Of a stretch of 64,000 nt of DNA, positions 47,435 through 63,081 are shown one piece after another (the first letter of the stretch is position 1; each line of letters starts with the position of its first letter). The DNA comes from Dehalococcoidia bacterium (GTDB lineage: Bacteria; Chloroflexota; Dehalococcoidia; GIF9; AB-539-J10), in assembly GCA_030612025.1 (NCBI GenBank), contig JAUWOR010000001.1, positions 64,001 to 128,000 of the forward strand. Direction: 5' to 3'. A program made the position numbers and the translations under genes. Under the pieces are notes generated by a model that was not told where the DNA came from, searched no databases, and saw only the letters and a program-made list of their open reading frames with translations.

Positions 47435-47526
47435 TGGCGGAGGGAGTGGGATTTGAACCCACGACCCCGATTTCTCGGGGTAAGCGCTTAGCAGGCGCCC
47501 GCACTAGGCCACTATGCGATCCCTCC
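47435..47526 (-). tRNA. tRNA-Ser(GCT)
   Basis: GGAGGGA acceptor stem, CT-GCT-AA anticodon loop, long variable arm, GGTTCAAATCC, encoded CCA. Confidence 0.95.
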
Positions 47527-47759
47527 ATGGACTTGAGGGGACAATAGACAGAACTTTTAGCCCTGCATTCAATCTTACTTCCTAGTCTACTGCCGCCATA
47601 GCTGTTATTTTACCATGTAGAATGATTAAGCCACAACTTGGTCGACATTCATCTTTGCAAGGCAGCTAGAGCCCCTCTTGCACCCGCCAAATTCTAACCC
47701 TTATCAGGAGGCTTTCACAGTTAGGTGTTGAGCCGGATAAAGTCGTTGCTTCGCAATGC

Positions 47760-47818
47760 TTCCATCTTTCAAACTTCTTCATGTTATAAACGCTTTGAGT
47801 TTGTATAAAGTCCGCCCA
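47760..47818 (-). pseudogene. metF fragment
   Basis: Near-identical to 53460-53517 (ADFIQTQSVY...KKFERW). Confidence 0.8.
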
Positions 47819-47892
47819 ATTTCATAAAAATGGCAAGGAAGGCGCTAGCTTCCAAAAAGTCCCTGAATAAGAGCCTTCTTAAGTCTTGAAAT

Positions 47893-47920
47893 TTGCAAAT
47901 AGTAGCAAAAGCGTTAAAAT
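47893..47920 (+). promoter_or_regulatory. Candidate promoter of the hydrogenase operon
   Basis: TTGCAA-16-TAAAAT; resembles the 54312 promoter. Confidence 0.5.
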
Positions 47921-47975
47921 CTCGGGTTGACTAGTGAGATGATAAATAACCTGCTAGGATAGTTTGTTCTAGGCT

Positions 47976-48056
47976 GGAACATATGAGGAAGATGCTAGGA
48001 CATATTTTATCCATCGTTTTTCACGACTTAGAGGCTCCTCTAGCTGTGATTGAAAG
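47976..48056 (+). pseudogene. Histidine kinase H-box fragment
   Basis: EHMRKMLGHILSIVFHDLEAPLAVIE matches KHARETMGRILSVIFHDLKAPLAAVE of the 54353 kinase. Confidence 0.8.
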
Positions 48057-48093
48057 AGTTCAAGGCTAAAGCAATAGAATCGAAAGGAGTGTT

Positions 48094-48981
48094 ATGAAAG
48101 TTTCGAACGTGAAGGAGTACCCAGCAATATGGCTACAATGTGCTGCCTGCACTGGGTGCTCTGTTTCAGTTCTCAATGCTGTAAATCCCTCTATTAAAAA
48201 TCTACTAATTGATGAGGTGCTCCCCGGGAAGCACATAAATTTGAGATTCCACCCCACTGTGATGGCAGGATCGGGAGCACCAGTGGTCGAAGTTATGGAG
48301 GATACCTCAAAGCAGAAAAGGGGTGATTATATTCTCATCGTAGAGGGTGCTATTCCTACAGCCAAGAACGGCATCCACGGGGTAGTTGGGGAGAAGGCTG
48401 GAAAGCCTGTGACCATGCTGTCGCGGTTTGAGGAGTTAGCCAAAGATGCCCTAGTAGTTATAGCCTTGGGGACTTGTGCTGCCTTTGGGGGAATCCCGGC
48501 TGCTCATCCCAACCCTAGCCAATGCCTTAGCGTGGGAGATGTTCTTCAATCTCGAGACATCAATACCTTTTTGGTAAACATCCCAGGCTGCCCACCACAC
48601 CCCGATTGGTTTGTGGGCACAGTGGCAAGTATCTTGTTTTCAGGCTTACCAAAGCCAGAGGACTTGGACGAATATAGACGTCCCAAAGCCTTCTATGGTC
48701 AACTAATCCATGAAAACTGCCCGCGGCGAGCCTACTACGATGAGAACAAGTTTGCTAAGAAGTTTGGCGATCCCGGCTGCCTCTATGAACTGGGATGCAA
48801 GGGTTCAGTAACCTATTCCGATTGTCCTTTAAGGCTTTGGAACAATGGGGTGAACTGGTGTATAGCTAATGGTTCCCCTTGTATTGGTTGCACGGAGCCA
48901 GGCTTTCCTGATGAAGTGTCACCTCTTTACGAGAAGATAACAGCCACTCTGCCGGAAACACCAACAGGAGGTTCGAGTTAA
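48094..48981 (+). CDS. [NiFe] hydrogenase small subunit, group 1-like, no Tat signal
   Basis: WLQCAACTGCSVS, GTCAAFGG, PGCPPHP, HENCPR, CLYELGCKG, NWC...PCIGC. Confidence 0.93.
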   Translation: MKVSNVKEYPAIWLQCAACTGCSVSVLNAVNPSIKNLLIDEVLPGKHINLRFHPTVMAGSGAPVVEVMEDTSKQKRGDYILIVEGAIPTAKNGIHGVVGEKAGKPVTMLSRFEELAKDALVVIALGTCAAFGGIPAAHPNPSQCLSVGDVLQSRDINTFLVNIPGCPPHPDWFVGTVASILFSGLPKPEDLDEYRRPKAFYGQLIHENCPRRAYYDENKFAKKFGDPGCLYELGCKGSVTYSDCPLRLWNNGVNWCIANGSPCIGCTEPGFPDEVSPLYEKITATLPETPTGGSS

Positions 48982-50540
48982 TGGGTAAGATTATAATCGA
49001 CCCGGTAACACGCATTGAAGGGCATCTCAAAATCGAGGTGGTGGTTGAGAATAAAGAAGTAAAGGAAGCTAGGAGTTCAGGGACATTATTTCGCGGCTTA
49101 GAGCTAATCCTAAGGGGCAGAGATCCCCGTGATGCCCAACGGATAACTCAGCGTATTTGTGGGGTTTGCCCCACAAGCCACTCCACAGCAGCCGCTCTAA
49201 GCTTGGATAGTGCTTTCGGAATCGCTGATAAAATACCGGATAATGGTAGGATAATACGTAATCTAATTCTTGGCGCAGCTCATATCGCAGACCACATCCT
49301 CCACTTCTATCACCTGGTTGCCCTCGACTATGTGGATGTAACTGAAATAGCAAAATATGAAGGCAATACCCCGACCCTAAATTCAATAAAGAGCTTTATT
49401 AAGCGAGGTGAGCTTGGTCCCTTTATCCCTCGCTATGAAGGCGATTATCGCTTGCCCGATAAGGTTAATGAGCAAGCGGTAGCTCATTATGTTCAGGCAT
49501 TTGATATGCGCCGTAAAGGTCAAGAGATGCTTTCTCTCTTTGGCGGCAAGATGCCTCACAATGTTGGCATCGTCCCTGGAGGTGTTACTTCTACTCCTAC
49601 AGTAGATAAGATAATATCCTTCCTGTGGAGGCTTAAAGAGCTCCAAGAATTTATCGATAACGTCTATATCCCCGACGTAGCAGCAATAACCCAAGCTTAT
49701 CCCGATTACCTTGAGATTGGGCATGGTTGCGGGAGCTTGCTTTCCTATGGAGCCTATGAACTGGATGGGAAGGAGCCTAACCTCACAAAAAGGAAGAGAC
49801 TATTTAAGCCAGGAATAACTTCCACCGACCTTAGCTTTAATGGGCTGAAGCCAGATAAAATTGCCGAGGAAGTGAAGCATTCTTGGTATAGTGATTCCAT
49901 TAGTGGCAGGCATCCCTCTCAAGGCGACATTATACTCAATGAGGAGAAGGATGGGGCCTATTCCTGGATAAAATCCCCGCGTTATGAAGGCAAGGTTTAT
50001 GAGGCTGGTCCCTTAGCTCGACTCATGGTTACCTATGTTAGTGGCAAGCCTGAGGTTAAAAGCCTTGTTGACTCCACCTTGGCGAAGCTAAGTATAAGTA
50101 TAGATGCTATGTTCTCCGTTTTAGGGCGTCACCTTGCTCGAGCCCTGGAAACCAAGTTTATAGCTGATTCCATGGCTGATTGGCTCTTGGAGCTCAAGCC
50201 TAATGAGCCAGCTTATGTAAGCTACGAGCTTCCACAGGAGGCTACTGGAATGGGTTTGACTGAGGCAGCCAGGGGAGCATTGGGACATTGGATAGAGATA
50301 AGAGAGGGCAAAATTGCCAATTATCAAGTCGTTACTCCCACTAGCTGGAATGCCTCCCCTATAGATGATAGGGAACAACCTGGACCTATTGAGCAGGCTA
50401 TCACAGGAGCCAAGATAAAGGATGAAGCTAATCCCTTTGAAATCGTGCGCATTGTGCGCTCCTTTGACCCCTGCTTAGCCTGTGCCGTACATTTAATTAG
50501 TCCTAAGGGGCATGATCTAGGGGCATATCGCATCTGTTGA
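48981..50540 (+). CDS. [NiFe] hydrogenase large subunit (group 1a-like)
   Basis: DPVTRIEGH, RICGVC, RSFDPCLACAVH plus cleavable tail. Confidence 0.95.
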   Translation: MGKIIIDPVTRIEGHLKIEVVVENKEVKEARSSGTLFRGLELILRGRDPRDAQRITQRICGVCPTSHSTAAALSLDSAFGIADKIPDNGRIIRNLILGAAHIADHILHFYHLVALDYVDVTEIAKYEGNTPTLNSIKSFIKRGELGPFIPRYEGDYRLPDKVNEQAVAHYVQAFDMRRKGQEMLSLFGGKMPHNVGIVPGGVTSTPTVDKIISFLWRLKELQEFIDNVYIPDVAAITQAYPDYLEIGHGCGSLLSYGAYELDGKEPNLTKRKRLFKPGITSTDLSFNGLKPDKIAEEVKHSWYSDSISGRHPSQGDIILNEEKDGAYSWIKSPRYEGKVYEAGPLARLMVTYVSGKPEVKSLVDSTLAKLSISIDAMFSVLGRHLARALETKFIADSMADWLLELKPNEPAYVSYELPQEATGMGLTEAARGALGHWIEIREGKIANYQVVTPTSWNASPIDDREQPGPIEQAITGAKIKDEANPFEIVRIVRSFDPCLACAVHLISPKGHDLGAYRIC

Positions 50541-50556
50541 TAAGGACAAAAGAGAA

Positions 50557-50991
50557 ATGGAAACCATCATTCTGGGAATAGGGAATGTCCTATTGAAGGA
50601 CGAGGGAGTGGGGTGCCATGTCGCCCACGCTTTGGAGAAAATTCCCCTTCCCAATACAAAGGTGATAGATGGCGGGACATCCCCAAATATATTGTTCCTC
50701 GAGGACGCCGCTAAATTGATTGTAGTGGATGCTGTTAAGGGGGGAGGGGTGCCAGGAGAAGTTTATCGCTTTCGTCTTGATGATATAGCTCTAGAGCAAA
50801 AGCCATTTCTATCCCTTCACGATATAGGCTTAATAGACAATTTGCTGTTAATGAGACTTTTACATAACATAGGCGAGACCATCATTATTGGGGTTGAGCC
50901 CAAAGAGATAGAGTGGAGTTTGGAATTATCGCCTGAGCTTCAAGCGAAGATACCTCGGATAGTGGAGACGATATTAGCAGAACTTAGTTAG
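50557..50991 (+). CDS. Hydrogenase maturation protease
   Basis: LGIGNVLLKDEGVG, IDGGT, VDAV, SLHD. Confidence 0.92.
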   Translation: METIILGIGNVLLKDEGVGCHVAHALEKIPLPNTKVIDGGTSPNILFLEDAAKLIVVDAVKGGGVPGEVYRFRLDDIALEQKPFLSLHDIGLIDNLLLMRLLHNIGETIIIGVEPKEIEWSLELSPELQAKIPRIVETILAELS

Positions 50992-51033
50992 CTGAAAGCT
51001 GTCAGCTGATAGCTATCAGAAAGGAGAGGTGGA

Positions 51034-51684
51034 ATGTTGATTTCAGAGCAAAAACCACTCGAGGAAATTTTGAGTTACCTTGATGGTGAAAGGAATATTT
51101 TTCTCATCGGCTGCAAAGGATGTGCTGAAGGCTGTGAGAGCGGTGGGGAGAAGCAAGTGCTGGAAATGAAGCACACCTTAGAGGGGCAAGGCAAAGCAAT
51201 TAGTGGTTTCTCAATTATCGATATGGTGTGCAATGAGACATTGACCAGGATGAAGTTAAAAACTCACCAGGAGGAGATGAAGGCTGCGGATTCGATTTTG
51301 GTGCTTACCTGTGGTACTGGGGTGCAAACAGTGGCAGGAGCGACAGATAAAGTTGTACATCCTGGCTGTAATACCTTATCCTCTGGCGGTGCCCATGCTG
51401 AATGGAAGGAAGCAGAGCGCTGTCTTGAGTGTGGTGACTGCGTGTTGGAATTCACCGGTGGCATCTGTCCCATTGCCAGATGCTCCAAGCATTTGCTTAA
51501 CGGCCCTTGTGGCGGCTCGCAAGGAGGCAAGTGTGAGGTTGATCCGAGCATTCCCTGCGCTTGGCAATTGATTATTGAGAGGTTAACTAAATTAGGGCAA
51601 CTTGACAAGCTGGAGAAGATTGTGGCACCGAAAAACTGGAGTGTAAGCCTTATTGCCGGTCCACCAGTAAAAAGGGGGCTCTAA
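51034..51684 (+). CDS. metV: Methylene-THF reductase small subunit MetV
   Basis: CLECGDC, GGICPIARCSK.LLNGPCGG, KCEV, CAW. Confidence 0.9.
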   Translation: MLISEQKPLEEILSYLDGERNIFLIGCKGCAEGCESGGEKQVLEMKHTLEGQGKAISGFSIIDMVCNETLTRMKLKTHQEEMKAADSILVLTCGTGVQTVAGATDKVVHPGCNTLSSGGAHAEWKEAERCLECGDCVLEFTGGICPIARCSKHLLNGPCGGSQGGKCEVDPSIPCAWQLIIERLTKLGQLDKLEKIVAPKNWSVSLIAGPPVKRGL

Positions 51685-51709
51685 AAATTCGAAGACTTTT
51701 CAGGATCAA

Positions 51710-51850
51710 AGGGTGTTCAAAAATGTAGTACGAGGCTTTAGCCTCGTGCACGACCCTAAAGGGTCGCACTACGAGAATCTTGGAGGTGAAGAGTATTAAA
51801 ACTGGATGAGACAAATCCAGTTTTGAATCTGAGGCAAAATTAAACAGCCT
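51710..51850 (+). mobile_element. MITE-like element with REP doublet type B
   Basis: 141 nt, located between metV and metF. Confidence 0.8.
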
Positions 51851-51871
51851 CGGGTCAAGTAAGGAGGTAGG

Positions 51872-52789
51872 ATGAAGACCAAGAGCAATTTGGAGAGGGT
51901 GCTTGAAGCTGGGCATTTCGCTGTCACTGGCGAAATAGGACCACCGCCAAGCGCCGACTCTGAGGTGATAAAGAGAAAAGCAAGAATACTCAAAGGTCAT
52001 GTTGATGCCTTTAATGTCACTGATGGTCAAACAGCCGTGGTGCGCATGTCAAGTTGGGCAGCTTGCCTTATAGGAAAAGAAGAAGGCTTAGACCCTATTG
52101 TTCAAATGACTTGTCGGGATAGAAATCGCATTGCCCTTCAGATGGATATATTAGGCGCGGCAGCATTAGGTATAAATAATATCTTGTGCCTCACTGGCGA
52201 CCACCAGAAATTCGGCAATCATCCTATGGCTAAAGGCGTCTTTGACCTCGATTCCATCCAATTCCTCAAAGTGGTAAAGGATATGAGGGATGAAAAGAAG
52301 TTCCAGTGTGGTGACGAGATGGCGGTTGAGCCAAACCTCTTCACAGGGGCAGCTGCCAATCCCTTCGCCGATCCCTTCGAGTTTAGAGTAATTCGTCTTG
52401 CCAAGAAAGTAGCCGCAGGGGCGGATTTCATTCAAACTCAGATCGTCTACAATATGGATAAGTTTGCCGAGTGGATGAAGCGCGTGCGCGATAGGGGATT
52501 ACATGAGAAGGTAAAAATCCTTGCCGGGGTTGCTCCGATAAAATCAGTAGGCGCGGCAAGGTATATGAAGACCAAAGTTCCTGGGATGGATGTCCCTGAT
52601 AGCATTATTGAACGCCTCCGTGGTGTGCCCAAAGAGCGAGTCTCAAAGGAAGGGATTAAGCTCTGTGTTGATATTATCAATCAGGTGCGCCAGATCGAAG
52701 GTGTAGCTGGTATTCATCTCATGGCTATTGAGTGGGAGGAGACTGTGCCTGAGATAATAGAGGCAGCGGGCCTTCTACCCCGCCCTTAA
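51872..52789 (+). CDS. metF: Methylene-THF reductase MetF
   Basis: NVTD, TCRDRNRIALQ, LTGD, ADFIQTQ, GIHLM. Confidence 0.93.
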   Translation: MKTKSNLERVLEAGHFAVTGEIGPPPSADSEVIKRKARILKGHVDAFNVTDGQTAVVRMSSWAACLIGKEEGLDPIVQMTCRDRNRIALQMDILGAAALGINNILCLTGDHQKFGNHPMAKGVFDLDSIQFLKVVKDMRDEKKFQCGDEMAVEPNLFTGAAANPFADPFEFRVIRLAKKVAAGADFIQTQIVYNMDKFAEWMKRVRDRGLHEKVKILAGVAPIKSVGAARYMKTKVPGMDVPDSIIERLRGVPKERVSKEGIKLCVDIINQVRQIEGVAGIHLMAIEWEETVPEIIEAAGLLPRP

Positions 52790-53118: not shown

Positions 53119-54066
53119 TTATTGCCTCCCCAATTCTTCAAGGGAAGTGCGAGGATAAAGACCACTAGCCTCACAGATCTCTGGAACAACTTCTTCCCAT
53201 TCAATAGCCATGATATGGATACCTGCTACCCCTTCTATTTCCTTCAGACTGTTTATGGTTTCCACGGCAATTTTTATCCCGTCCTTCCGCACTTGCTCCC
53301 TAGTAGTAGCCTTGCGAAGGCGCTCAATGAGCTCATCGGGAACGTCCACCCCAGAAAGCTTTGTCTTCATATATCTCGCTATGGCTACAGATTTTAGTGG
53401 AGTAATACCGGCAAGGATTTTTACTTTCTTGTGCAGTTCCCTCTCCCGAACCATTTCCATCCATCTTTCAAACTTCTTAATGTGATAAACACTTTGAGTT
53501 TGTATAAAGTCCGCCCCGGCAGCAACTTTCTCCCCGAGGCGAATCACTTCGTGCTCCGTGGGCTCGGCAAAGGGGCTTGTTACTGCCCCAATGAAAAGTC
53601 TTGGTTCTCTTCCAGCTATTAACTCCCCATTCTCAAACTTTTTTTCATCCCGGAGTCCTTTGACCATCCTGATAACTTGGATAGAATCGAGGTCGAAAAC
53701 GGATTTTGCCTCAGGGCAATTTCCAAAAGAAACAGGATCACCGGAGAGACAAAGTATGTTATTCACACCAAACGTGGAGATGCCCAAAATGTCCATCTGG
53801 AGAGCAATTCGATTTCTGTCACGACAAGTCATTTGCACTATGGGATCAAGCCCTTCTTGTTTCCCTATAAGGCAGGCTGCCCAGCTTGCCATCGCTACCA
53901 CCGCTGACTCTCCATCCGGAACATTAAAAGCATCAACATAGCCTTTAACAAGATTAGCTTTTTCCCTTATCACCTCGGGTTCCGTATTCCGAGGGGGACC
54001 GATTTGAGCAGTCACGGCAAAATATCCTGCTTCGAGTACCCTTTCTAGGTTGCTTTTCGTCTTCAC
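53119..54066 (-). CDS. metF: Methylene-THF reductase MetF paralogue
   Basis: Same motifs as 51872; Gln replaces Glu in VTA[Q]IGPP. Confidence 0.9.
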   Translation of the reverse strand: MKTKSNLERVLEAGYFAVTAQIGPPRNTEPEVIREKANLVKGYVDAFNVPDGESAVVAMASWAACLIGKQEGLDPIVQMTCRDRNRIALQMDILGISTFGVNNILCLSGDPVSFGNCPEAKSVFDLDSIQVIRMVKGLRDEKKFENGELIAGREPRLFIGAVTSPFAEPTEHEVIRLGEKVAAGADFIQTQSVYHIKKFERWMEMVRERELHKKVKILAGITPLKSVAIARYMKTKLSGVDVPDELIERLRKATTREQVRKDGIKIAVETINSLKEIEGVAGIHIMAIEWEEVVPEICEASGLYPRTSLEELGRQ

Positions 54067-54283: not shown

Positions 54284-54311
54284 AAAATAAACGCTCTCAC
54301 ACCATCAATGC

Positions 54312-54340
54312 TTGCAAAAATCTTTAGAAGTACTTATAAT
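54312..54340 (+). promoter_or_regulatory. Sigma70-type promoter of the kinase/hdr operon
   Basis: TTGCAA-17-TATAAT. Confidence 0.75.
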
Positions 54341-54352
54341 GTAAAACCCGAA

Positions 54353-55495
54353 ATGAAAGCAGTAGTCGAATTGGGCTCAGTTAAGGAAATATTAAAGCAT
54401 TCAGACTTGTTCCGGGGGCTGAGCAACGACGAACTGGATAAGTTGCTACCGCTTTGCCGAGAAGAGGTTTATGAAGCCGGGATAGTTATTTTCCCTGAAG
54501 GCACCCCATGCCATACTATGTATATCGTGGAATCAGGCAAGGTGGCTCTGGAAATGAATCTTCACATTAGTCGGGCGGTAGAGGAAAGTGCCACAATTCA
54601 CGTGGTAACTCAAGGTGGCTGCTTGTGTTGTTCAGGGCTCATAGATCCTTATATTCTTACTGCAACGGGCCGGAGTCTTGAGACAACCAAGGTTATTGCT
54701 TTAGACACGGCGGAGCTTAAAGGTTTGTTCGAAAACAACCCTGAAGTGGGATGTAGGACAATGAATAATCTCGCTAAGGTAGTTTCTTCAAGGCTTAAAC
54801 ACGCTAGGGAGACGATGGGACGCATTCTGTCTGTTATTTTCCATGACCTAAAAGCTCCCCTGGCTGCGGTGGAAAGCTATAATCGGCTCTTGCTCGGTGA
54901 GTTTGCCGGAGAATTAAATGAAGAGCAAAAAAACATAGTGCAAAGGAGTAGTAAGAGACTCTCTGAGCTGCTAAATTTAGTGAGTAACATAATTGATTTT
55001 TCCCGAATTGGTTTCGGGGACTTGAGAATGGAGAGAATTTCTCTGGCAAAAGTGATAGAAGATTGCCTTGAAGCTATGCATCCCCTAGCTGAGGGAAAGG
55101 GGTTGCAACTGGTTGCTGAAGTACCCCGAGAGCTTCCGGCTATTCTTGGAGTTCAAGAGCGGCTTAAACAGGTAGTTAGGAATTTGTTATCCAATGCCAT
55201 TAAGTTTACCCCCTCTGGAGGGGTGGTAACGGTTAAAGCAAAGGATGACATAGATTATGTAGAAGTGGAGGTGGCGGATACCGGAATTGGTATTCCAGCC
55301 AAGGAATTACCCAGGATATTTGACGGTTTTTATCGCGGTCTCGACATAGCTGAAAGGGGAGCTGGCTTAGGGCTTTCTATAACCAAGAGCATAGTTGAGG
55401 CTCACCATGGTAGAATATGGGCTGTGAGTCCCTGTCCGGAAAGCGGTAAGGGGAGCAAGTTTACCTTCATTTTGCCCAAGGATTTGAAAAGGTGA
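54353..55495 (+). CDS. cNMP-binding-domain sensor histidine kinase (soluble)
   Basis: LFRGLS..EL; HDLKAPL, NLLSNAIKFT, DTGIG, GAGLGL; start placed after the promoter. Confidence 0.9.
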   Translation: MKAVVELGSVKEILKHSDLFRGLSNDELDKLLPLCREEVYEAGIVIFPEGTPCHTMYIVESGKVALEMNLHISRAVEESATIHVVTQGGCLCCSGLIDPYILTATGRSLETTKVIALDTAELKGLFENNPEVGCRTMNNLAKVVSSRLKHARETMGRILSVIFHDLKAPLAAVESYNRLLLGEFAGELNEEQKNIVQRSSKRLSELLNLVSNIIDFSRIGFGDLRMERISLAKVIEDCLEAMHPLAEGKGLQLVAEVPRELPAILGVQERLKQVVRNLLSNAIKFTPSGGVVTVKAKDDIDYVEVEVADTGIGIPAKELPRIFDGFYRGLDIAERGAGLGLSITKSIVEAHHGRIWAVSPCPESGKGSKFTFILPKDLKR

Positions 55496-55547
55496 GGAGA
55501 AGATTAAATAAGTTGCCCAACTAAAACCAGTCAGCGGAGTAAGGTAG

Positions 55548-55973
55548 ATGGCTAAGATTCTGATAGTAGATGATGACCCTGATATTCGAATAGCAATTAG
55601 TAGTGTGTTAAAGTCACGTTCCTACGAGGTAATTGAAGCTCGTGATGGAGAGGAAGCTCTAACCAGGCTAAAAGAACAAAAACCAGACTTAATGCTCTTA
55701 GATCTCCTGCTGCCAAAGATGGATGGCTTTGCTGTTGTCAAGGAACTGCAGAACACCCAGTGGAGTGAGTATCACAATATGCCCATTTTAATTATAAGCT
55801 CGGTGAGAGAGGAGGCCAGCCAACGCCGCTATGAGTTGGAAACTGGTCATCGACTCGGTGCTGAAGACTATATAGAAAAACCCATCGAGCCATTTGCCTT
55901 ACTTAAGCGCATAAAGAAGCTCTTATCGAAGGGAGGGGAAGATGCAGAAGCAAACCAAAATCCTCGTGATTGA
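55548..55973 (+). CDS. Single-domain response regulator
   Basis: ILIVDDD, LDLLLP.MDG, EKP. Confidence 0.92.
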   Translation: MAKILIVDDDPDIRIAISSVLKSRSYEVIEARDGEEALTRLKEQKPDLMLLDLLLPKMDGFAVVKELQNTQWSEYHNMPILIISSVREEASQRRYELETGHRLGAEDYIEKPIEPFALLKRIKKLLSKGGEDAEANQNPRD

Positions 55974-56349
55974 CGATGACCCTGATTTACAGACAGTAGT
56001 GAAGAGCGTGCTTGAAAGCAAGTCCTATCAGGTGGTTGCTGCGCTTGATGGAAATGAAGGTTTGCGGAAGGTAGTGGATGAAAGGCCTGATTTAATTATC
56101 TTAGACGTGATAATGCCAGGTAAAAGTGGGTTCGAGGTTTGCCGAGAAATCAAGACTGATCCCAAATATTACTTCTTCTCTCACATTCCCGTGCTGATGC
56201 TAACTGTCTATCCTGATGATAGAGAAAAGATGCATCTCTCTATGCGAGAGGGGATGACAATGGAGGCAGAAGACTACCTACACAAGCCCTTCGATCCCAA
56301 AGAACTACTGAATCGAGTGGAGGAATTACTAAAAAAAGAAGCTAAATAG
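55942..56349 (+). CDS. Single-domain response regulator
   Basis: ILVIDDD, LDVIMP, HKPF. Confidence 0.92.
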   Translation: MQKQTKILVIDDDPDLQTVVKSVLESKSYQVVAALDGNEGLRKVVDERPDLIILDVIMPGKSGFEVCREIKTDPKYYFFSHIPVLMLTVYPDDREKMHLSMREGMTMEAEDYLHKPFDPKELLNRVEELLKKEAK

Positions 56350-57593
56350 TGAATAAGTCTACTGTAGTTATTGGCGGTGGCATAAGTGGAATAACTTCAG
56401 CATTAGAATTAGCCAATAGCGGCTTTAGAGTATACTTAATCGAGAGAGAAGCAGCAATTGGAGGGCAAGCTGCTTCTTTTTGTTGTAAAGCAACGGAGGT
56501 TTGCACTAAATGCTCTGTCTGCCTTGTCCCCCAAAGCTTAGCTAAGGTGGCAGTCCACCCTCGAATCTCGATCTTGACCGACTCGATGGTGGCAGGGTTA
56601 AGCGGCGAAATCGGAGATTTTAAGGTCGAGGTGCTTCAAAAGCCTCAATACATTACCCCAGAAAGATGTATCGCTTGCGGAATATGTGCTGAGGTTTGTC
56701 CTACCGAGCCGAAGGCAATCCTTCCACCTTCTCCAGAGGCAATCCCTTATTGTTATGTCATCGATGAAAGGCTATGTCTTCGCCTCAGAGGTGAGAAGTG
56801 CAACCTCTGTCAGGGAATATGTCCCACGGACGCTATAGCCTTTGACCTTAAACCTGAAAGGCAAGAACTGAGTGTCGGCGCAATTATCGTCGCCACCGGC
56901 TTCGAAGTCTTTAACGCCCGAGAAATTGGCTCCCTGGGTTATGGTAGATATCCTAATGTCTTGACTGGCCTCGACCTGGAGAGGATTTTTAATCGTGAGG
57001 GCTATCTTAAACTTCCCACAAATGGAAAGGAGCCAAAAAACATTGCCTTCGTCCAATGTGTCGGCTCCAGAGACGAAAGTCATGGCTATTGCTCCCAGGT
57101 ATGCTGTAAGTACGCCATGAGGTTCGCTCGGCTTATTAAGTATCAAAATCCTGATGCCCAGGTGACTATCTTCTATATTGATCTTCAGACTGCCGGGAAG
57201 GGTTTTGCCCAGTTTTATCAGGAGTGTCGGGAAAGTATTCGATTTATCCGAGGAGTACCAGTTGAAATTTTACAGACCCCCTCCAGCGAACTTGAAGTGA
57301 GGTTTGAGAATATTTCAGAAGGAAAGGTTGAACGAGAAACCTTTGACCTGGTAACCCTTTCGGTAGGCATCGCCCCTAGGAAAGATTCCTGGGATTTGGC
57401 CAGGATTTTGGGAATAAATTTAGCAGACTATGGCTTCTTCGATACTAAGGAGCCTTTTAATTCCGTAGAGACCAATGTCGAGGGGATTTTCCTCGCCGGA
57501 ACTTGTCAAGGTCCCAAAGATATCCCTGATTCGATCGCTCATGGAATAGCAGCGGCAGAGAGGGTGATGGAGGTTTTAGAAAAATGCCAGTAA
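56349..57593 (+). CDS. hdrA: HdrA-like flavo-iron-sulfur protein
   Basis: GGGISG, two ferredoxin motifs, QCVGSRD, CSQVCC, GPKDI. Confidence 0.88.
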   Translation: MNKSTVVIGGGISGITSALELANSGFRVYLIEREAAIGGQAASFCCKATEVCTKCSVCLVPQSLAKVAVHPRISILTDSMVAGLSGEIGDFKVEVLQKPQYITPERCIACGICAEVCPTEPKAILPPSPEAIPYCYVIDERLCLRLRGEKCNLCQGICPTDAIAFDLKPERQELSVGAIIVATGFEVFNAREIGSLGYGRYPNVLTGLDLERIFNREGYLKLPTNGKEPKNIAFVQCVGSRDESHGYCSQVCCKYAMRFARLIKYQNPDAQVTIFYIDLQTAGKGFAQFYQECRESIRFIRGVPVEILQTPSSELEVRFENISEGKVERETFDLVTLSVGIAPRKDSWDLARILGINLADYGFFDTKEPFNSVETNVEGIFLAGTCQGPKDIPDSIAHGIAAAERVMEVLEKCQ

Positions 57594-59227
57594 AGCTAGG
57601 CATTTTCCTCTGCGATTGTGGAGGAAGTCTAAAGAATATAAATTCCCCCAAAATTAGGGAAGATTTAGGGAAACTCGAAGACGTCGCCTTTGTAGACATA
57701 AGCCATAATCTATGCCTCGAAGAAGGAGAGAAGGCGATAGCTTCAAGAATCCTGAGGGAAAACGTAAATAGAGTAGTAATCGCTGCTTGCTCACCAGAGT
57801 TATGTGAGGATAAATTTATGAGGCTTCTAGAAGGACTTGGGCTTAACCCTGATCTTCTTTCCATAGCAAATATAAGGGAGCAATGTTCCTGGGCTCATGA
57901 AGGGGATGTTACCGAGAAGGCGTTGGAACTCATAAGAATGGCTATAAATAAAGCTCGGTTGCTTCAGGGTGTGGAAAGAGGGCAGGTTCCAGTAAACAAA
58001 GAGGTTCTCGTGGTAGGCGGAGGATTCTCTGGGATGAAATCATCTCTTGAACTTTCCCAGCTTGGCATTAGGACAACTATAGTGGAAAGAGCGTCAACTT
58101 TGGGAGGGAAGCTTAAGGGGCTAGAAGGGTTTTACGGACTCAAGACAAGCCCGAATGAGATGTTTGGCTCGATGACAAGGGTGATAGAGGAAGATGAAAA
58201 CATCGAAGTTTTTACTTCTGCTGAGGTAGCAAGGGTGCAAGGGGAAGTAGGGGATTTCGCCGTAAGGATAAGAAGCGGGGAAAAGGAATCCTCCCAAAGC
58301 TTTGGGGCTATCATCTTTGCTACCGGATATAGAACTGAAATCTTACCTCAAGATTTTGAGCTTAAGCCCGGTGGTAACATTATCTCGCAGCAAAGGCTTG
58401 TCGAGATGCTTCAAGCTCCAGAGAAGTTAGCACGAAGACCCGAAACTATAGGTTTTGCCCTTGATTTCTCCGATGAAAATTCTCGTCTTCCTACGCTCTC
58501 CGCTCTGAAGAATGCTTTGGCAGTCAAAGACAAGCTAGGGAGCGAAGTCTACGTGTTCTGTAAGAATCTGAAGGTGGATAGTGAAGGGGCGGAGAAGCTT
58601 TACCGAGAAGCGAGGGACCGGGGAGTAGTGTTTTTGAAATTTGAAGAAAAACCACGGATATATGGGGAGGATAGTCGAATAAAGGTCGAGGCAAGGGATG
58701 TTCTTCTAGGTGAGGAGGTAACGCTCCTCTGTGACCTCTTGGTGGCTGAGGAAAAAGCTTTGCCCCCTGAAGGAACCAAAGCCCTAAGTTCTATGCTAAA
58801 CATAGAAACCGACTCCCAGGGTTTTTATCAAGACGAAAATGTGCATCTTTATCCCGTGGCATCAGGCAGGAAAGGGGTGTTTTTTGTTGGGGGTTGTCGA
58901 GGGAGCTTAGATCTCGGCCGAGCTTCAACCGATATCGCATCTGCTGTTGGGAGCGTTCATGAGCTTTTATCATCAGGGGAGGCAATGGTGGAGGTGGAGA
59001 AAGTGAAGGCGGATAGTCAAAAGTGCCGAGCCTGCCTCACTTGCATCCGCGTTTGCCCCCATGAAGCAATTCGGCTAGTCCGAGTGGACAGCGAAAGGTG
59101 GGTGGCCAAAATCTATGACCTTGCCTGCGATGGATGCGGTATTTGTGCCGCTATTTGCCCAGCAACGGCGATAAAGTTTGAAGGTTATAGTGATGAGCAA
59201 ATCCTGGCCGAAGTCGAGGCAATATAA
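57584..59227 (+). CDS. hdrA: HdrA-like flavo-iron-sulfur protein (second module)
   Basis: CDCG, AACSP, NIREQCSWAH, GGGFSG, C-terminal 2x[4Fe-4S]. Confidence 0.85.
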   Translation: MPVKLGIFLCDCGGSLKNINSPKIREDLGKLEDVAFVDISHNLCLEEGEKAIASRILRENVNRVVIAACSPELCEDKFMRLLEGLGLNPDLLSIANIREQCSWAHEGDVTEKALELIRMAINKARLLQGVERGQVPVNKEVLVVGGGFSGMKSSLELSQLGIRTTIVERASTLGGKLKGLEGFYGLKTSPNEMFGSMTRVIEEDENIEVFTSAEVARVQGEVGDFAVRIRSGEKESSQSFGAIIFATGYRTEILPQDFELKPGGNIISQQRLVEMLQAPEKLARRPETIGFALDFSDENSRLPTLSALKNALAVKDKLGSEVYVFCKNLKVDSEGAEKLYREARDRGVVFLKFEEKPRIYGEDSRIKVEARDVLLGEEVTLLCDLLVAEEKALPPEGTKALSSMLNIETDSQGFYQDENVHLYPVASGRKGVFFVGGCRGSLDLGRASTDIASAVGSVHELLSSGEAMVEVEKVKADSQKCRACLTCIRVCPHEAIRLVRVDSERWVAKIYDLACDGCGICAAICPATAIKFEGYSDEQILAEVEAI

Positions 59228-59235
59228 TATATGGA

Positions 59236-59412
59236 GAAGCACTAAATACTAATAGAAAATCAAAAGGCAAAAGTAAAAATGCAAACTGACAAAGCAAAAT
59301 TTAAAAATCAGTTTAATAAAGCCTTTTTGCTTTTTTGAATTGTAATTTTGATTTTTTATCTTTGATTTTTGATATTGTTAGAATTTGCTTAGAGATTAGA
59401 ATTTAGGATTTA
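59236..59412. repeat. Nested inverted AT-rich heptamer arrays
   Basis: AAAATC/AAAAGGC units mirrored by TTTTGA units, flanked by CTAAAT/TTTAG units. Confidence 0.6.
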
Positions 59413-59422
59413 ACTTAAAGGT

Positions 59423-59815
59423 ATGACCAGAGAAAATAAAAAAATTATCGCTTTTTGCTGCGCTGAGTCAGCATATCGGGCAGCCAATAGAGCCGGGAGG
59501 CTCAGGATTCGCTACCCAGATAATGTAAGAGTCATTCGGGTCCCTTGTGCTGGAAGGGTGAGCGTGCTTCACATTCTCAAAGCTTTTGAAAAGGGCGCCG
59601 CTGGAGTGCTGGTGATGGGCTGTCAGGAAGGCGCTTGTCGCCATCTAACGGGCAACATTAGGGCAAAGGAAAGGGTAAAGTATGCCAAAGACTTGCTCAA
59701 AGAAGTAGGAATAAATGGACAGCGAGTAAAAATGGTCAATTTCGGCCCTGACATGGCTCAAAAATTCGCCCGTGAGATCGAGGAGATGGTGGAAAAAATT
59801 CACCCTGTGAAATAA
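59423..59815 (+). CDS. mvhD: MvhD/FlpD family [2Fe-2S] protein
   Basis: AFCC, RVPCAGRV, GCQEGACRH..GN. Confidence 0.9.
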   Translation: MTRENKKIIAFCCAESAYRAANRAGRLRIRYPDNVRVIRVPCAGRVSVLHILKAFEKGAAGVLVMGCQEGACRHLTGNIRAKERVKYAKDLLKEVGINGQRVKMVNFGPDMAQKFAREIEEMVEKIHPVK

Positions 59816-59840
59816 TATTTCACGGGGTAAAGGAGGAAAA

Positions 59841-60503
59841 ATGATAATCGCCGCAAGGAAGCCTTTGGAGGAAATTAGAAATATGCTTGCTGGGTATAAA
59901 AGGATTCTGGTGGTGGGGTGTGGAACCTGTGTCACCATATGTTGGGCCGGTGGAGAGAAAGAGGTGGGAATACTTTCTTCCCAGCTTAGGCTTGCCTCAA
60001 GCAAAGATGGAAATGAACTTTCTGTCATGGAAGCGGTAGTCGAAAGACAATGCGAAAAAGAGATGGTGATTGAAGAACTTGGAGATAAAGTGCCCGGAGT
60101 GGAAGCGATTCTCTCTATGGGCTGTGGGGTTGGAGTGCAAACGATAGCTGAGGTATTTGAGGAAAAGCCCATCTTCCCAGCGCTTAACACCACATTCATG
60201 GGAATGCCCGAGGCAGAAGGAGTTTGGACTGAGAAATGTGGGGCTTGCGGAGATTGTCTGCTTTATTGGACTGGAGGGATCTGTCCGGTTGTACGCTGCG
60301 CTAAAGGGCTCCTCAACGGGCCTTGTGGTGGCACAAGGAAGGGTGGGAAATGCGAAATAGACCCAGAAAAGGATTGTGCCTGGGTTCTTATCTACCGAAG
60401 ACTGGAAAAACAGGGAAGGCTCAATCTGATGAGGAAGTATTATGAGCCTAAGAACTACCGGGCAGTGAAAAGGCCCGGGAAGATTGAAGCCTTGGAGGCT
60501 TAA
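59841..60503 (+). CDS. metV: Methylene-THF reductase small subunit MetV
   Basis: GCGTCVT.C.AGG, CGACGDC, GGICP..RCAK.LLNGPCGG. Confidence 0.92.
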   Translation: MIIAARKPLEEIRNMLAGYKRILVVGCGTCVTICWAGGEKEVGILSSQLRLASSKDGNELSVMEAVVERQCEKEMVIEELGDKVPGVEAILSMGCGVGVQTIAEVFEEKPIFPALNTTFMGMPEAEGVWTEKCGACGDCLLYWTGGICPVVRCAKGLLNGPCGGTRKGGKCEIDPEKDCAWVLIYRRLEKQGRLNLMRKYYEPKNYRAVKRPGKIEALEA

Positions 60504-60521
60504 ATCATAGGGGGTGCAAAA

Positions 60522-61418
60522 ATGGCAAGACCTTTCAGAGAAATGCTTAAAACGAAGGATTTTATTGTAACCGCTGAGGCTGGGCCAGAAAAAGGGTCAA
60601 ATATCGCGAAGCTGGTTGAGCATATTGAGCTTCTCAAAGACAGGGTAGATGGTCTAAATGTGACTGATAATCAAAGCGCTGTGATGAGGTACCCTTCTCT
60701 TGGGACTTGCCTACTCATTAAGGAGCATGGCGGGGAGCCAATTCTCCAGATCACTTGCCGGGATCGGAATCGCCTGGCAATTCAAGCAGACCTTCTTTTT
60801 GCTTACTCCAGAGGAATAAATAATGTCCTTTGTCTCACCGGTGATGCTATCGACACGGGTGACCATAAAGAAGCAAAGCCCGTCTTCGACCTTGATTCAG
60901 TTCAGTTAATTCATCTTGTTCATACATTGAACTCTGGAAAAGATATGGTAGGAAACGAACTTGATGGAGGTGTTGATTTTTGTATCGGGGCATCTGCTAC
61001 TCCCTCGGCAGACCCTATCGAGCCTCAACTTCTGAAATTCCAAAAAAAACTGGATGCCGGGATGGACTTCATTCAAACTCAAGCTGTTTATGATATGGAT
61101 GAGCTCAAAAGATTCATGGAGAATTTCCATAAGATGGATCATATTGACGGGGTGAAGATTTTAGCTGGGGTAGTTCCTATCTGGGGAGCAAAGATGGCAA
61201 GATATATGAACGAAAATGTTCCCGGAATATATGTTCCTCAGTATTTAATCGACGAAATAGACCAAGCTCCTAAAGGAACAAAAGCAGCCAAAGGAATAGA
61301 AATGACTGGAAGGCTCATAAGGCAGATAAAGGAGGAGAAAATTTGTGACGGGGTTCATGTTATGGCTATTGGAAGAGAGGAAAGGGTTCCTGCGATTCTG
61401 GAAGCTGCGGGAATTTAA
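60522..61418 (+). CDS. metF: Methylene-THF reductase MetF
   Basis: NVTDNQ, TCRDRNRLA, LTGD, FIQTQ, GVHVM. Confidence 0.93.
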   Translation: MARPFREMLKTKDFIVTAEAGPEKGSNIAKLVEHIELLKDRVDGLNVTDNQSAVMRYPSLGTCLLIKEHGGEPILQITCRDRNRLAIQADLLFAYSRGINNVLCLTGDAIDTGDHKEAKPVFDLDSVQLIHLVHTLNSGKDMVGNELDGGVDFCIGASATPSADPIEPQLLKFQKKLDAGMDFIQTQAVYDMDELKRFMENFHKMDHIDGVKILAGVVPIWGAKMARYMNENVPGIYVPQYLIDEIDQAPKGTKAAKGIEMTGRLIRQIKEEKICDGVHVMAIGREERVPAILEAAGI

Positions 61419-61550: not shown

Positions 61551-61691
61551 AGGGTGTTTAAAAATGTAGTGCGACCCTTTAGGGTCGTGCACGAGGCTAA
61601 AGCCTCGCACTACGAAAATTTTGGGGTGAATGGGTATTAAAACTGAATGAGATAAATCTAGTTTTGAATTTGAGGCAAAATTAAACAGCCT
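61551..61691 (+). mobile_element. MITE-like element with an inverted type B doublet
   Basis: 141 nt; shell as in the 51710 copy, payload is its reverse complement. Confidence 0.82.
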
Positions 61692-61717: not shown

Positions 61718-62197
61718 TTGACTGTAGTCTTAAACGAGCAAGACACTAAATTCAAATATGATGTGGCTGAAGAGCCTGGCGGAGAGAATATCAAACTTTG
61801 CTTTGCCTGTGGGCTCTGCACCGCTAGTTGTCCTGTGGCAGACATTGACCCTGGATATAATCCTCGAAAGATAATCCGCATGGTTCTCCTGGGAATGAGA
61901 AAGGAAGTCCTTTCATCAAATTTGCCCTGGCTTTGCACCCAGTGCTACACCTGCCAAGCTCACTGCCCTCAGAACGTGAAATTCTCCGATGTAATGAAGG
62001 CATTAAGGAGCATGGCGGTGCGGGAAGGATATGTCCATCCTTCTTTCCTTGAGCAGATAAAAGAGATTGACTCCTTCTCGCAGAAGTCACGCCATCAAAT
62101 GGTGCTATCCGTTGTAGATAAGAAATCTGAGGAAATGAAGGTAGACCCGACTAAGCTTGCTGAGGAGGCACTGGAAAAGGAGAAGGCGAAAGTTTAG
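61718..62197 (+). CDS. hdrC: HdrC-like 2x[4Fe-4S] protein
   Basis: CFACGLCTASCP, WLCTQCYTCQAHCP. Confidence 0.88.
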   Translation: MTVVLNEQDTKFKYDVAEEPGGENIKLCFACGLCTASCPVADIDPGYNPRKIIRMVLLGMRKEVLSSNLPWLCTQCYTCQAHCPQNVKFSDVMKALRSMAVREGYVHPSFLEQIKEIDSFSQKSRHQMVLSVVDKKSEEMKVDPTKLAEEALEKEKAKV

Positions 62198-62209
62198 GGA
62201 GGTAAAGCT

Positions 62210-62635
62210 ATGGAAGCTAAGGATAAGCCTATAGGAGCAGCACTGGTGGTTGGGGGGGGAATCGGAGGGATTCAAGCAGCACTCGATTTAGCCGAGTCCG
62301 GGTATAAGGTCTACTTGGTGGAAAAATCTCCCGCCATCGGCGGAGTTATGGCTCAGCTTGATAAGACCTTTCCTACTTTAGACTGTTCCATGTGTATCCT
62401 CTCCCCAAAACTTATCGAATGTGGAAGACACCCTAATATTGAACTCTTAACCTATTCGGACATCCTGGATGTTAAAGGAGAGCCGGGGAAATTTAAGGTA
62501 AAAGTCAGGAAGCGCGCAAGGTCTATCGATCTTGAGAAATGTACCGGCTGCGGTATTTGTTACAACAGTTGTCCTGTGAAATATAAGCCTCAACTTAAAG
62601 AAGGAGGATATCATGGTCACGGTGGAACTCGATAA
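62210..62635 (+). CDS. Short HdrA N-terminal module
   Basis: GGGIGG, QLDKTFPTLDCSMC, CTGCGIC...CP, then stop. Confidence 0.85.
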   Translation: MEAKDKPIGAALVVGGGIGGIQAALDLAESGYKVYLVEKSPAIGGVMAQLDKTFPTLDCSMCILSPKLIECGRHPNIELLTYSDILDVKGEPGKFKVKVRKRARSIDLEKCTGCGICYNSCPVKYKPQLKEGGYHGHGGTR

Positions 62636-63074
62636 AGTTGATGAAATCATAGATAGATATGTAGGTGAAGAAGGGATTTTGATTCAATTGTTGTTGGATA
62701 TACAGAGCGAATTAAATTGGATCCCTAAGGAAGCCTTGGAGCGAATAAGCGAGAGGCTCAAGGTGCCAGTAAGCCAGATATATCGTATAGCCAGCTTTTA
62801 TAAAGCCATGAGCCTGACCCCAAGAGGGAAGCATATAATAAATGTCTGCCTCGGCACTGCCTGCCACGTGCGAGGAGGTCCGAGGATTATGGATAGGGCA
62901 AAGCAGATTTTGGGCATAGACGCCGGAGAGACAACCCCGGATATGCAGTTCACTCTGGAAAGGGTTAATTGCCTCGGCTGTTGCGCCTTAGGGCCAGTGA
63001 TGGTAGTTGATAGAGATTACCATGGCAAGATAACACCAGCAAAGGTAAAAGAGATTATCGAGACCTGTGATTAG
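62613..63074 (+). CDS. nuoE: NuoE/HydC-like [2Fe-2S] subunit
   Basis: VCLGTACHVRG, CLGCCALGP. Confidence 0.92.
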   Translation: MVTVELDKVDEIIDRYVGEEGILIQLLLDIQSELNWIPKEALERISERLKVPVSQIYRIASFYKAMSLTPRGKHIINVCLGTACHVRGGPRIMDRAKQILGIDAGETTPDMQFTLERVNCLGCCALGPVMVVDRDYHGKITPAKVKEIIETCD

Positions 63075-63081
63075 GGGGGCT

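Follow-up and report, generated by a model that had tools for sequence, protein, structure and literature searches.

A leaderless group-1 [NiFe]-hydrogenase encoded together with its own MetV subfamily and MetF: a candidate H2-linked methylene-tetrahydrofolate reductase of Dehalococcoidia and other bacteria

The 64,000-nt stretch of DNA analysed here, referred to below as the window, comes from a Dehalococcoidia bacterium (assembly GCA_030612025.1, contig JAUWOR010000001.1, positions 64,001 to 128,000 of the forward strand) and contains a cluster of five genes that encode the small (HydS) and large (HydL) subunits of a [NiFe]-hydrogenase, a hydrogenase maturation protease, and the MetV and MetF subunits of a methylene-tetrahydrofolate (methylene-THF) reductase (MTHFR). 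The comparison of this cluster with related loci shows, at the level of sequence, that the linkage of the hydrogenase with metV is conserved, reciprocal and specific to one clade, the members of which are devoid of the twin-arginine translocation (Tat) leader typical of their exported relatives. We estimate the probability that the products of these genes function as a soluble HydSL-MetVF complex interconverting H2 and methylene-/methyl-THF, which would represent a fifth type of MetVF enzyme, at roughly 0.55. The physical complex, the route of electrons through it and its physiological direction are what we infer from these data. The elements of the cluster are as follows (positions are those of the window).

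48094-48981, + strand: hydS, [NiFe]-hydrogenase small subunit of 295 aa, without Tat leader and without C-terminal anchor
48981-50540, + strand: hydL, [NiFe]-hydrogenase large subunit of 519 aa, Cys (not Sec) form, [NiFeSe]-like clade
50557-50991, + strand: gene of hydrogenase maturation endopeptidase (HycI/HybD family) of 144 aa, PF01750, TIGR00072 (124.3 bits, cut-off 47.45)
51034-51684, + strand: metV, 216 aa, PF12225, iron-sulfur adaptor subunit of MTHFR, hydrogenase-linked subfamily
51709-51851, no strand: dispersed structured repeat of ~142 bp in the metV-metF spacer, not a part of the enzyme
51872-52789, + strand: metF, 305 aa, PF02219 (158 bits), catalytic subunit of MTHFR

The original prediction, made from the DNA letters alone, placed hydS, hydL, the protease gene, metV and metF in a row on one strand at 48094-52789, and the open reading frames (ORFs) together with the Pfam and NCBIfam matches of their products bear this out. 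The five genes appear to be packed in an operon-like manner: the stop codon of hydS and the start codon of hydL overlap by 1 nt (TAATG), and gaps of 16, 42 and 187 nt separate hydL from the protease gene, the protease gene from metV, and metV from metF, respectively. The ATG of hydS is preceded by a GGAG ribosome-binding site, and metF has a GGAGG ribosome-binding site of its own. A consensus scan for terminators, in which the counts were not above those in shuffled sequences, indicated no terminator-like sites on the + strand inside 48094-52789. The promoter scan of the hydS leader gave two weak promoter-like matches (47714 and 47892), also not above the shuffle level.

A synteny survey, which had been proposed as a check of the prediction, was performed in both directions, and the linkage of the hydrogenase with metVF proved to be conserved. 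In the forward survey, an alignment of leaderless small subunits was compared with one genome per GTDB species, and the best 80 of 584 relatives were inspected. MetV is encoded downstream on the same strand in 60 of these 80 loci and immediately upstream in five; the remaining 15, with less than 2.9 kb of downstream sequence, carry no information, and the linkage is thus present in 65 of 65 informative loci. MetF follows MetV in 50 of the 60 loci, the other 10 having no more than ~4.4 kb of sequence downstream of hydS, and the protease gene is at its operon position in 34 of the 60. According to the record titles, 68 of the 80 loci belong to Chloroflexota (50 of them to Dehalococcoidia) and five to Planctomycetota, two are unlabelled, and one each is labelled as Nitrospirota, Poribacteria, Actinomycetota, Thermodesulfobacteriota and Myxococcota. 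In the reverse survey, the MetV alignment was compared with JGI metagenome contigs, and the best 80 of 481 relatives, 66-92% identical, were inspected. The HydL or protease gene lies directly upstream of metV in all 75 informative loci, the other five having less than 500 bp upstream.

As a control, 401 genomes sampled evenly from the same class were searched, and a HydS homologue at E <=1e-40 is encoded in 65 of them. The identities of these homologues to HydS are sharply split into those of at least 62% and those of at most 57%, and 20 regions were fetched around homologues of the latter group. An RRxF leader is present in 17 of the 20, and none of these 17 has MetV within ~8 kb (0/17). One leaderless control region (L105) has the gene order HydS-HydL-protease-MetV, and two distant leaderless ones (37-38% identity) have no MetV. 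Chance adjacency was considered as an explanation and rejected on the results of the forward, reverse and control surveys.

Phylogenetic analysis gave a similar picture. The small subunits without Tat leader form one clade (12 rows, support of 98 in the Shimodaira-Hasegawa-like approximate likelihood ratio test, SH-aLRT), the nearest neighbours of which are Tat-bearing. In the MetV tree, all 61 hydrogenase-adjacent MetVs fall inside one set of 65 rows, and the other four rows of this set represent MetVs of these loci that lie a few kb farther downstream. The MetVs adjacent to MvhD form a separate clade (nine rows, support 100), which also holds the second MetV of the window. The tree and the adjacency taken together indicate that the hydrogenase travels with its own MetV subfamily.

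Several features of HydS bear on the location of the hydrogenase in the cell. The protein matches the families PF01058 and PF14720 (120 bits) and TIGR00391 (255 bits, cut-off 179.5), and its match begins only at model position 45 of TIGR00391 and 37 of NF045520. Residue 5 of HydS aligns with residue 4 of the mature small-subunit chain of Desulfomicrobium baculatum hydrogenase (1cc1_S), and 18 residues precede the first cluster cysteine, which is residue 19. The model positions and the alignment to the mature 1CC1 chain thus confirm the predicted lack of an RRxFxK leader. Twenty close relatives of HydS begin at the same point; 90 of 125 full-length small-subunit cluster representatives were scored as Tat-bearing (RRxF leader). 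In the absence of a Tat leader the hydrogenase is not expected to be exported, and its cytoplasmic location is supported by sequence criteria. A missed upstream start of hydS that would restore the leader was considered and rejected, as there is no other start codon between the preceding in-frame stop and the start of the ORF, and the 20 close relatives share this starting point. In the search for TatC (PF00902), the genome of the organism (1.40 Mb in 19 contigs, 95.6% complete) gave no match, whereas 11 of 14 control genomes did. Possibly, this organism has no Tat pathway at all.

The other two negative traits named in the prediction, no membrane anchor and no cytochrome b gene, hold as well. 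The HydS chain ends 15 residues past its last conserved block, its sole 19-mer of hydrophobic character, at residue 119, coincides with the conserved core that surrounds C128, a cluster ligand, and no transmembrane-like segment was detected outside this core. None of the ORFs between 42 kb and 63 kb of the window encodes cytochrome b, and the only match to PF01292 in the genome is a sub-threshold, partial one of 25.7 bits on another contig. Both the anchor-less state and the absence of a cytochrome b gene are normal for [NiFeSe]-like hydrogenases. The unusual trait of this hydrogenase is the missing export signal.

The Cys and His ligands of HydS are conserved. We take its 13 Cys residues, including C256, and His206 to be the ligands of three clusters; the medial one would have C256 as its fourth ligand, of the [NiFeSe] type. 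A 6-residue insertion at HydS residues ~42-47 (window 48217-48234; P44, G45, H47) occurs in 32 of 32 leaderless small subunits; about 67-75 of 81 Tat-bearing relatives, as well as the 1CC1 chain, are gapped at this place. The P44, G45 and H47 residues of this insertion, as well as K219 and K223, are at least 90% conserved in the 32 members of the clade, compared to at most 9% in the 81 Tat-bearing relatives. K219 and K223 presumably lie near the ligands of the distal cluster, if known structures are a guide. Such clade-specific residues may mark the surface of contact with a new partner. In one related genome, the homologue of HydS (G194:C97:16207-17061) contains one in-frame TGA within the matched region, which could represent selenocysteine, a sequencing error or a pseudogene.

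HydL matches PF00374 (516 bits) and NF033181 (714.6 bits, cut-off 600). Its two nickel-binding motifs are intact: RICGVCPTSH is located at residue 58, and DPCLACAVH at residue 496. The latter is followed by a 15-residue tail of the kind that is removed by an endopeptidase, and this tail, together with the protease gene of the cluster, points to an active, matured enzyme. The best matches of HydL in the PDB are the large subunits of Desulfovibrio vulgaris [NiFeSe]-hydrogenases (E 1.3e-133), and the best match of HydS is 1cc1_S (E 1.6e-83). The closest families and solved structures support the assignment of the enzyme to group 1 in the original prediction. More specifically, the nickel motifs, the family scores, the group-1 C-terminal domain of the small subunit and the nearest relatives indicate group 1a of the [NiFeSe]-like kind, from which HydSL departs by the lack of the twin-arginine leader associated with export. 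It is not a [NiFeSe]-hydrogenase proper (HysAB): DPCLAC contains Cys, there is no in-frame TGA, and the scores in the HysA model NF045518 (546.5 bits, cut-off 780) and in NF045520 (335 bits, cut-off 470) are both below the cut-offs. Neither does it belong to the Mvh/Vhu enzymes of group 3c, as HydL scores 96 bits on VhuA (cut-off 800), the VhuG score is 30 bits (cut-off 450), and the operon is without MvhD. The C-terminal tail of HydL and the adjoining protease gene also set it apart from regulatory hydrogenases of group 2b.

In comparison with the periplasmic [NiFeSe]/group 1a enzymes of D. baculatum (1CC1) and D. vulgaris Hildenborough (5JSH, 2WPN and others), HydSL shares with them the best structure match, the anchor-less small subunit and the dedicated endopeptidase, and differs in the lack of the Tat leader, in Cys replacing Sec in the DPCxxC motif, in the 6-residue insertion of HydS and in K219/K223. 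The partner gene of HydSL differs as well, being metV rather than a cytochrome gene. The descent of HydSL from exported group-1a/[NiFeSe]-like enzymes, with a loss of the Tat leader, appears to be the best explanation of these similarities and differences.

The second half of the cluster encodes a typical MetVF pair, in which the PF12225 and PF02219 proteins stand side by side. The 11 Cys residues of MetV are invariant in 32 orthologues and include the set for two [4Fe-4S] clusters and Zn, which are the cofactors expected of MetV (PMC8760232, as described there). The identity of this MetV to the other two MetVs of the same genome is 42%. The three metV genes follow three different electron-input modules, namely, the hydrogenase, an HdrA-HdrA-MvhD set (window 56349-61418) and a fusion of GltD-like, ferredoxin (Fer4) and MvhD parts (contig C5), which fits the role of MetV as an adaptor to whichever donor is encoded upstream. 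The search of the PDB with the MetV profile matched no sequence, which means that there is no template for the interface. The prediction of a complex between HydS and MetV from paired alignments (32 rows each) gave a score of 0.01 versus the mark of 0.32 and carries no weight either way.

The original prediction assumed that a cytoplasmic hydrogenase passes electrons directly to MetVF. A cytoplasmic hydrogenase working with MetVF is supported by the lack of the leader and of TatC, by the packing of genes, by the 65/65, 75/75 and 0/17 counts and by the MetV subfamily; the word "directly" is what we infer in addition. In the mechanism that we propose, H2 would be split at the Ni-Fe site of HydL, and the three clusters of HydS (proximal, medial, distal) would carry the electrons on to the pair of [4Fe-4S] clusters in the dedicated MetV. 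From MetV they would reach the flavin of MetF, where methylene-THF would be reduced to methyl-THF. At very low H2 the same chain might run in reverse. It would thus be a fifth route of feeding MetVF, in addition to those via ferredoxin, RnfC2 with NADH, and HdrABC-MvhD.

The midpoint potentials (E0') of the H+/H2 and methylene-/methyl-THF couples are quoted as -414 mV and -200 mV, respectively (PMC9586279, PMC6295475, PMC8760232). From these values, direct coupling would release about 41 kJ/mol in the standard state. The potential of the H2 couple is calculated to be about -266 mV when H2 is at 1 Pa, a potential at which methylene-THF is reducible and NAD+ and ferredoxin are not, and below ~0.01 Pa H2 the reaction of HydSL-MetVF could reverse. 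The enzyme could therefore serve in the uptake of H2 for acetogenic or assimilatory reduction of one-carbon (C1) units, or in the release of H2 from methyl oxidation in syntrophy.

Several observations weigh against a HydSL-MetVF complex of this kind. A dissipation of ~41 kJ/mol would be surprising in organisms starved of energy, except at very low H2 or with a second acceptor. Of 376 longer MetV homologues 120 were listed, and none of these fuses MetV to HydS or HydL; the fusion partners that do occur among them are MetF, RnfC, a histidine kinase and a Rieske protein. The adjacent protease gene is absent in 26 of the 60 forward-survey loci with MetV downstream. In the genome under study, the repeat in the metV-metF spacer could uncouple the transcription of metF. 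Each of the two surveys was confined to the best 80 relatives, which come almost entirely from metagenome bins with possibly erroneous taxon labels, and the HydS and MetV trees are quick searches with SH-aLRT support only and no bootstraps.

Some of the alternatives concern genes downstream of the cluster. The neighbourhood of the operon contains the following elements.

47435-47526, - strand: tRNA-Ser(GCT), which borders the leader region of the hydS operon
47527-48093, + strand: non-coding leader before hydS, the presumed promoter region, between tRNA-Ser(GCT) and the operon; no ORF of 80 aa or more
53119-54066, - strand: metF2, a paralogue (PF02219), convergent with the operon, its product 68% identical to MetF1
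54308-56349, + strand: histidine kinase (cyclic nucleotide-binding, HisKA and HATPase domains) and two receiver-only response regulators
56349-61418, + strand: two HdrA-like genes, mvhD, and second metV and metF (type IV-like, Hdr/MvhD-linked), 3.6 kb downstream of the operon

Possibly, HydSL-MetVF forms, together with the HdrA-like and MvhD proteins, a single H2-driven reductase with flavin-based bifurcation, in which two H2 would reduce methylene-THF in an exergonic and ferredoxin in an endergonic reaction at the HdrA flavin. The large drop in free energy upon direct coupling makes a low-potential second acceptor attractive, and the same idea has been discussed for the type IV enzyme of Moorella in passages of PMC5736913, PMC9586279 and PMC8760232. 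The HdrA-HdrA-MvhD-MetV-MetF cluster of the window lies on the same strand as the hydrogenase operon, and in four loci labelled as Anaerolineae (L059, L060, L069, L070) the order HdrA-HdrA-MvhD-MetV-HydS-HydL, with gaps of ~45-70 nt, brings both parts together. In addition, MvhD-MetV-MetF lies just upstream of HydS in two loci (L022, L078), and another locus (L087) begins with MetV-HydS. However, a match to MvhD or HdrA is present within the fetched flanks of only 8 of the 80 loci, which places Hdr outside the conserved core; the hydrogenase-linked MetV belongs to a clade other than that of the MvhD-linked MetV; and the conventional MvhDGA hydrogenase encoded beside HdrA-like genes in the genome could serve Hdr. 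We consider such bifurcation unlikely. If it does take place, the MTHFR step would be an energy-conserving site of the Wood-Ljungdahl pathway, low-potential electrons would be obtained from H2 at the low concentrations of sediments, and the gene order of the Anaerolineae-labelled loci would be the most integrated form of the system.

Alternatively, the hydrogenase and MetVF may only be co-regulated. The hydrogenase would then reduce a soluble carrier such as ferredoxin, this carrier would reduce MetVF as in the type II enzyme, and the shared operon would serve H2-dependent C1 reduction. Purified MetVF enzymes are reported to accept reduced ferredoxin in vitro (in sections of PMC8760232 and PMC8515935), and the lack of hydrogenase-MetV fusions among the homologues listed is consistent with separate enzymes. 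On the other hand, HydS carries no additional module for the binding of ferredoxin, flavin or NAD, and there is no gene of a carrier in the operon. Co-regulation predicts neither a MetV subfamily that occurs only beside this hydrogenase (75/75) nor the absence of linkage in all 17 Tat-bearing relatives. Moreover, given the established potentials, a group-1 enzyme that does not bifurcate would have to work uphill to reduce ferredoxin with H2 when H2 is low. Co-regulation without physical coupling of the partners seems improbable.

Regulatory hydrogenases, like HydS, are leaderless; they lack the C-terminal extension and endopeptidase, and have bulkier residues in the gas channel. A role of HydSL-MetV as an H2 sensor, which would signal H2 or redox state through the neighbouring kinase and response regulators to C1 genes, could be considered in view of this shared leaderless state, of a kinase in or beside the cluster in 13 of the 80 loci (directly after MetV in L021, L049 and L078) and of existing fusions of MetV with histidine kinases (P0286, P0287), but it is very unlikely, as most loci lack the kinase, in contrast to MetF, which is present wherever the sequence suffices, HydL keeps its C-terminal tail and has an adjoining protease gene, the CGVC and FYHL motifs carry the catalytic-type Val and Leu rather than the bulkier residues of sensors, and the closest families and structures are of group 1a and not of group 2b.

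A soluble HydSL-MetVF complex, which we regard as the most plausible interpretation, can be compared with the known MetVF systems. The classification of MTHFRs outlined in PMC8760232 comprises four types (I-IV), none of which is described there with a hydrogenase. Types II-IV contain MetVF and are exemplified in that source by MetVF of Clostridium ljungdahlii, RnfC2-MetVF of Acetobacterium woodii and HdrABC-MvhD-MetVF of Moorella thermoacetica. As far as these descriptions go, the operon studied here resembles types II-IV in metF and metV being side by side, in the Cys set for two [4Fe-4S] clusters and Zn, and in the presence of an input module beside metV. It differs from them in that this module is a [NiFe]-hydrogenase and that MetV is of its own subfamily: upstream of metV there is a hydrogenase with a protease gene in place of any of the described donor modules (ferredoxin, RnfC2, HdrABC-MvhD).

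The linkage of a hydrogenase with metF has been mentioned before. In "Candidatus Syntrophonatronum acetioxidans", a signal-less [NiFe] hydrogenase 2 is encoded around metF and was described in 2018 as "possibly involved in H2 production", with a suggested release of H2 during methyl-group oxidation in syntrophy (PMC6295475). In "Candidatus Bipolaricaulia", a group 1a HysAB adjoins MetVF (PMC11287216, 2024). In both cases a group-1-type hydrogenase stands beside metF or metVF, and the authors inferred a supply of electrons to MTHFR or their removal from it. The relevant statements in PMC6295475 and PMC11287216 are one-sentence remarks on single lineages, and contain no survey, no link to Tat loss, no MetV subfamily and no biochemistry; the likeness of these systems to HydSL-MetVF is one of description only. 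In the case of Chloroflexi and Acetothermia, the clusters described in the pertinent parts of PMC5736913 and PMC9586279 are Hdr-MvhD-MetVF only. The original prediction regarded the coupling of a hydrogenase with MetVF as uncharacterised. This stands with respect to biochemistry, as full-text searches of the literature (with subscription journals and supplementary files beyond their scope) yielded no purification, assay, structure or linkage survey of a hydrogenase-MetVF enzyme, but the inference as such had already been printed, as indicated by the remarks in PMC6295475 and PMC11287216. New here are the breadth and reciprocity of the linkage, its tie to the loss of the Tat leader, and the dedicated MetV clade.

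Two other systems provide analogies at the level of design. The MvhAGD-HdrABC complex of methanogens (group 3c), of which a set is also encoded in the genome studied, is a cytoplasmic [NiFe]-hydrogenase that feeds its partner directly through Fe-S subunits; it differs from HydSL by sequence (see the VhuA score of HydL above), by the presence of MvhD and by a partner other than MetV. The hydrogen-dependent CO2 reductase (HDCR) of A. woodii and Thermoanaerobacter kivui follows the same logic, in that Fe-S subunits wire a hydrogenase directly to a Wood-Ljungdahl C1 reductase without any soluble carrier. However, HDCR consists of an [FeFe]-hydrogenase and formate dehydrogenase, which are unrelated in sequence to the proteins discussed here, and acts at a different step of the pathway. 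In T. kivui, H2 is used for the first reaction of the pathway, according to a statement in PMC8760232.

The identity of the physiological electron donor of MetVF-type MTHFRs and the possible conservation of energy at this step are presented in PMC8760232 as a long-standing question. A widespread, conserved module in which a hydrogenase takes the place of RnfC2 or Hdr/MvhD would be a candidate fifth solution, with H2 as a donor or product and no soluble carrier. Since H2 at 1 Pa still reduces methylene-THF but not NAD+ or ferredoxin, direct coupling could let sediment bacteria that are short of energy make use of trace H2. It could serve the most electropositive step of the pathway and, in reverse, allow electrons of methyl groups to be disposed of as H2 in syntrophy. 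Most titles of related loci name Dehalococcoidia or Anaerolineae, but several phyla are represented, Planctomycetota among them. In evolutionary terms, the module would exemplify the conversion of an exported respiratory enzyme to a cytoplasmic one by the loss of the Tat leader.

The genome of the organism encodes AcsB and has two matches to FTHFS, which indicates the presence of the Wood-Ljungdahl pathway. Apart from the conventional MvhDGA hydrogenase mentioned above, it also encodes NuoD and a group-3b-like hydrogenase, the latter beside HypF. A search for the reductive dehalogenase family gave no match in this genome and none in the control genomes either. The third metV-metF pair, on contig C5 (C5:37512-41210; L092:3513-7211), follows the gene of a 708-aa fusion protein composed of GltD-like Fer4_20 and Pyr_redox_2 parts, a ferredoxin domain and a C-terminal MvhD (FlpD) domain. 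This protein is a possible NAD(P)H-dependent input module of MetVF, unlike RnfC2 and HdrABC.

Certain MetV variants were noticed among the homologues. In P0286 and P0287, a MetV domain (47% identical to the MetV studied here) is fused to HisKA and HATPase_c domains, and apparently this Fe-S domain functions as the sensor input of a histidine kinase. In five loci (L010, L014, L018, L019, L034), the hydrogenase-type metV is separated from metF by a second, divergent MetV-like gene, the product of which is 42-46% identical. Four of these five form a clade of their own in the MetV tree (support 99), the one from L018 having been left out by filters.

The solo metF2 has no metV of its own. A kinase gene similar to that of the window, where it lies 1.5 kb downstream of metF, accounts for the 13 of 80 loci with a kinase in or beside the hydrogenase-metVF cluster, and in related loci two metF genes with a histidine kinase gene between them are common.

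In the Hdr-linked cluster of the window, HdrA is encoded by two overlapping genes (56349-59227), the product of the first corresponding to model positions ~139-562 and that of the second to positions 1-231 followed by C-terminal ferredoxin domains. Judging from these matches, the usual order of HdrA is permuted or duplicated here. The same two-gene form occurs in five other loci (L059, L060, L069, L070, L078). The second metF is followed, at 61718-63999, by an HdrC-like gene, a 141-aa ORF, a NuoE-like gene and a NuoF-like gene that runs off the window. The 141-aa ORF matches only HdrA positions 141-261 and overlaps the start of the NuoE-like gene, and the NuoF-like gene carries an N-terminal 2Fe-2S ferredoxin domain. 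The HdrC-, NuoE- and NuoF-like proteins may constitute an NADH-input module of the Hdr-MvhD-MetVF cluster.

DNA near-identical or close to that of the window is present in metagenomes from cold seeps, marine sediments, the subsurface and vents. The search of sequencing runs gave 12 rows with at least half of the sampled words, and 20 rows from 7 studies, two of which rows may be the source; the runs X5 and X15 cover all 30 bins. There is no RNA run among these rows; the two filed as RNA-Seq (X19, X20) were judged to be probably DNA and contain short contigs only.

The ~142-bp repeat of the metV-metF spacer is built of several hairpins (fold z-score -6.5) and has many copies on contigs C4, C5, C8 and C18 of the genome. 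Metagenome contigs of the runs X5 and X15 skip 149-152 bases at this site, where the word depth rises ~50-fold, and in relatives without the repeat the metV-metF gap is ~30-60 nt. The 187-nt gap of the window can thus be attributed to the insertion of the repeat, a copy of which is absent from some strains. It looks like a small mobile or repetitive extragenic palindrome (REP)-like element that targets intergenic spacers. A second copy lies near 61551-61691, between the second metF and the HdrC-like gene.

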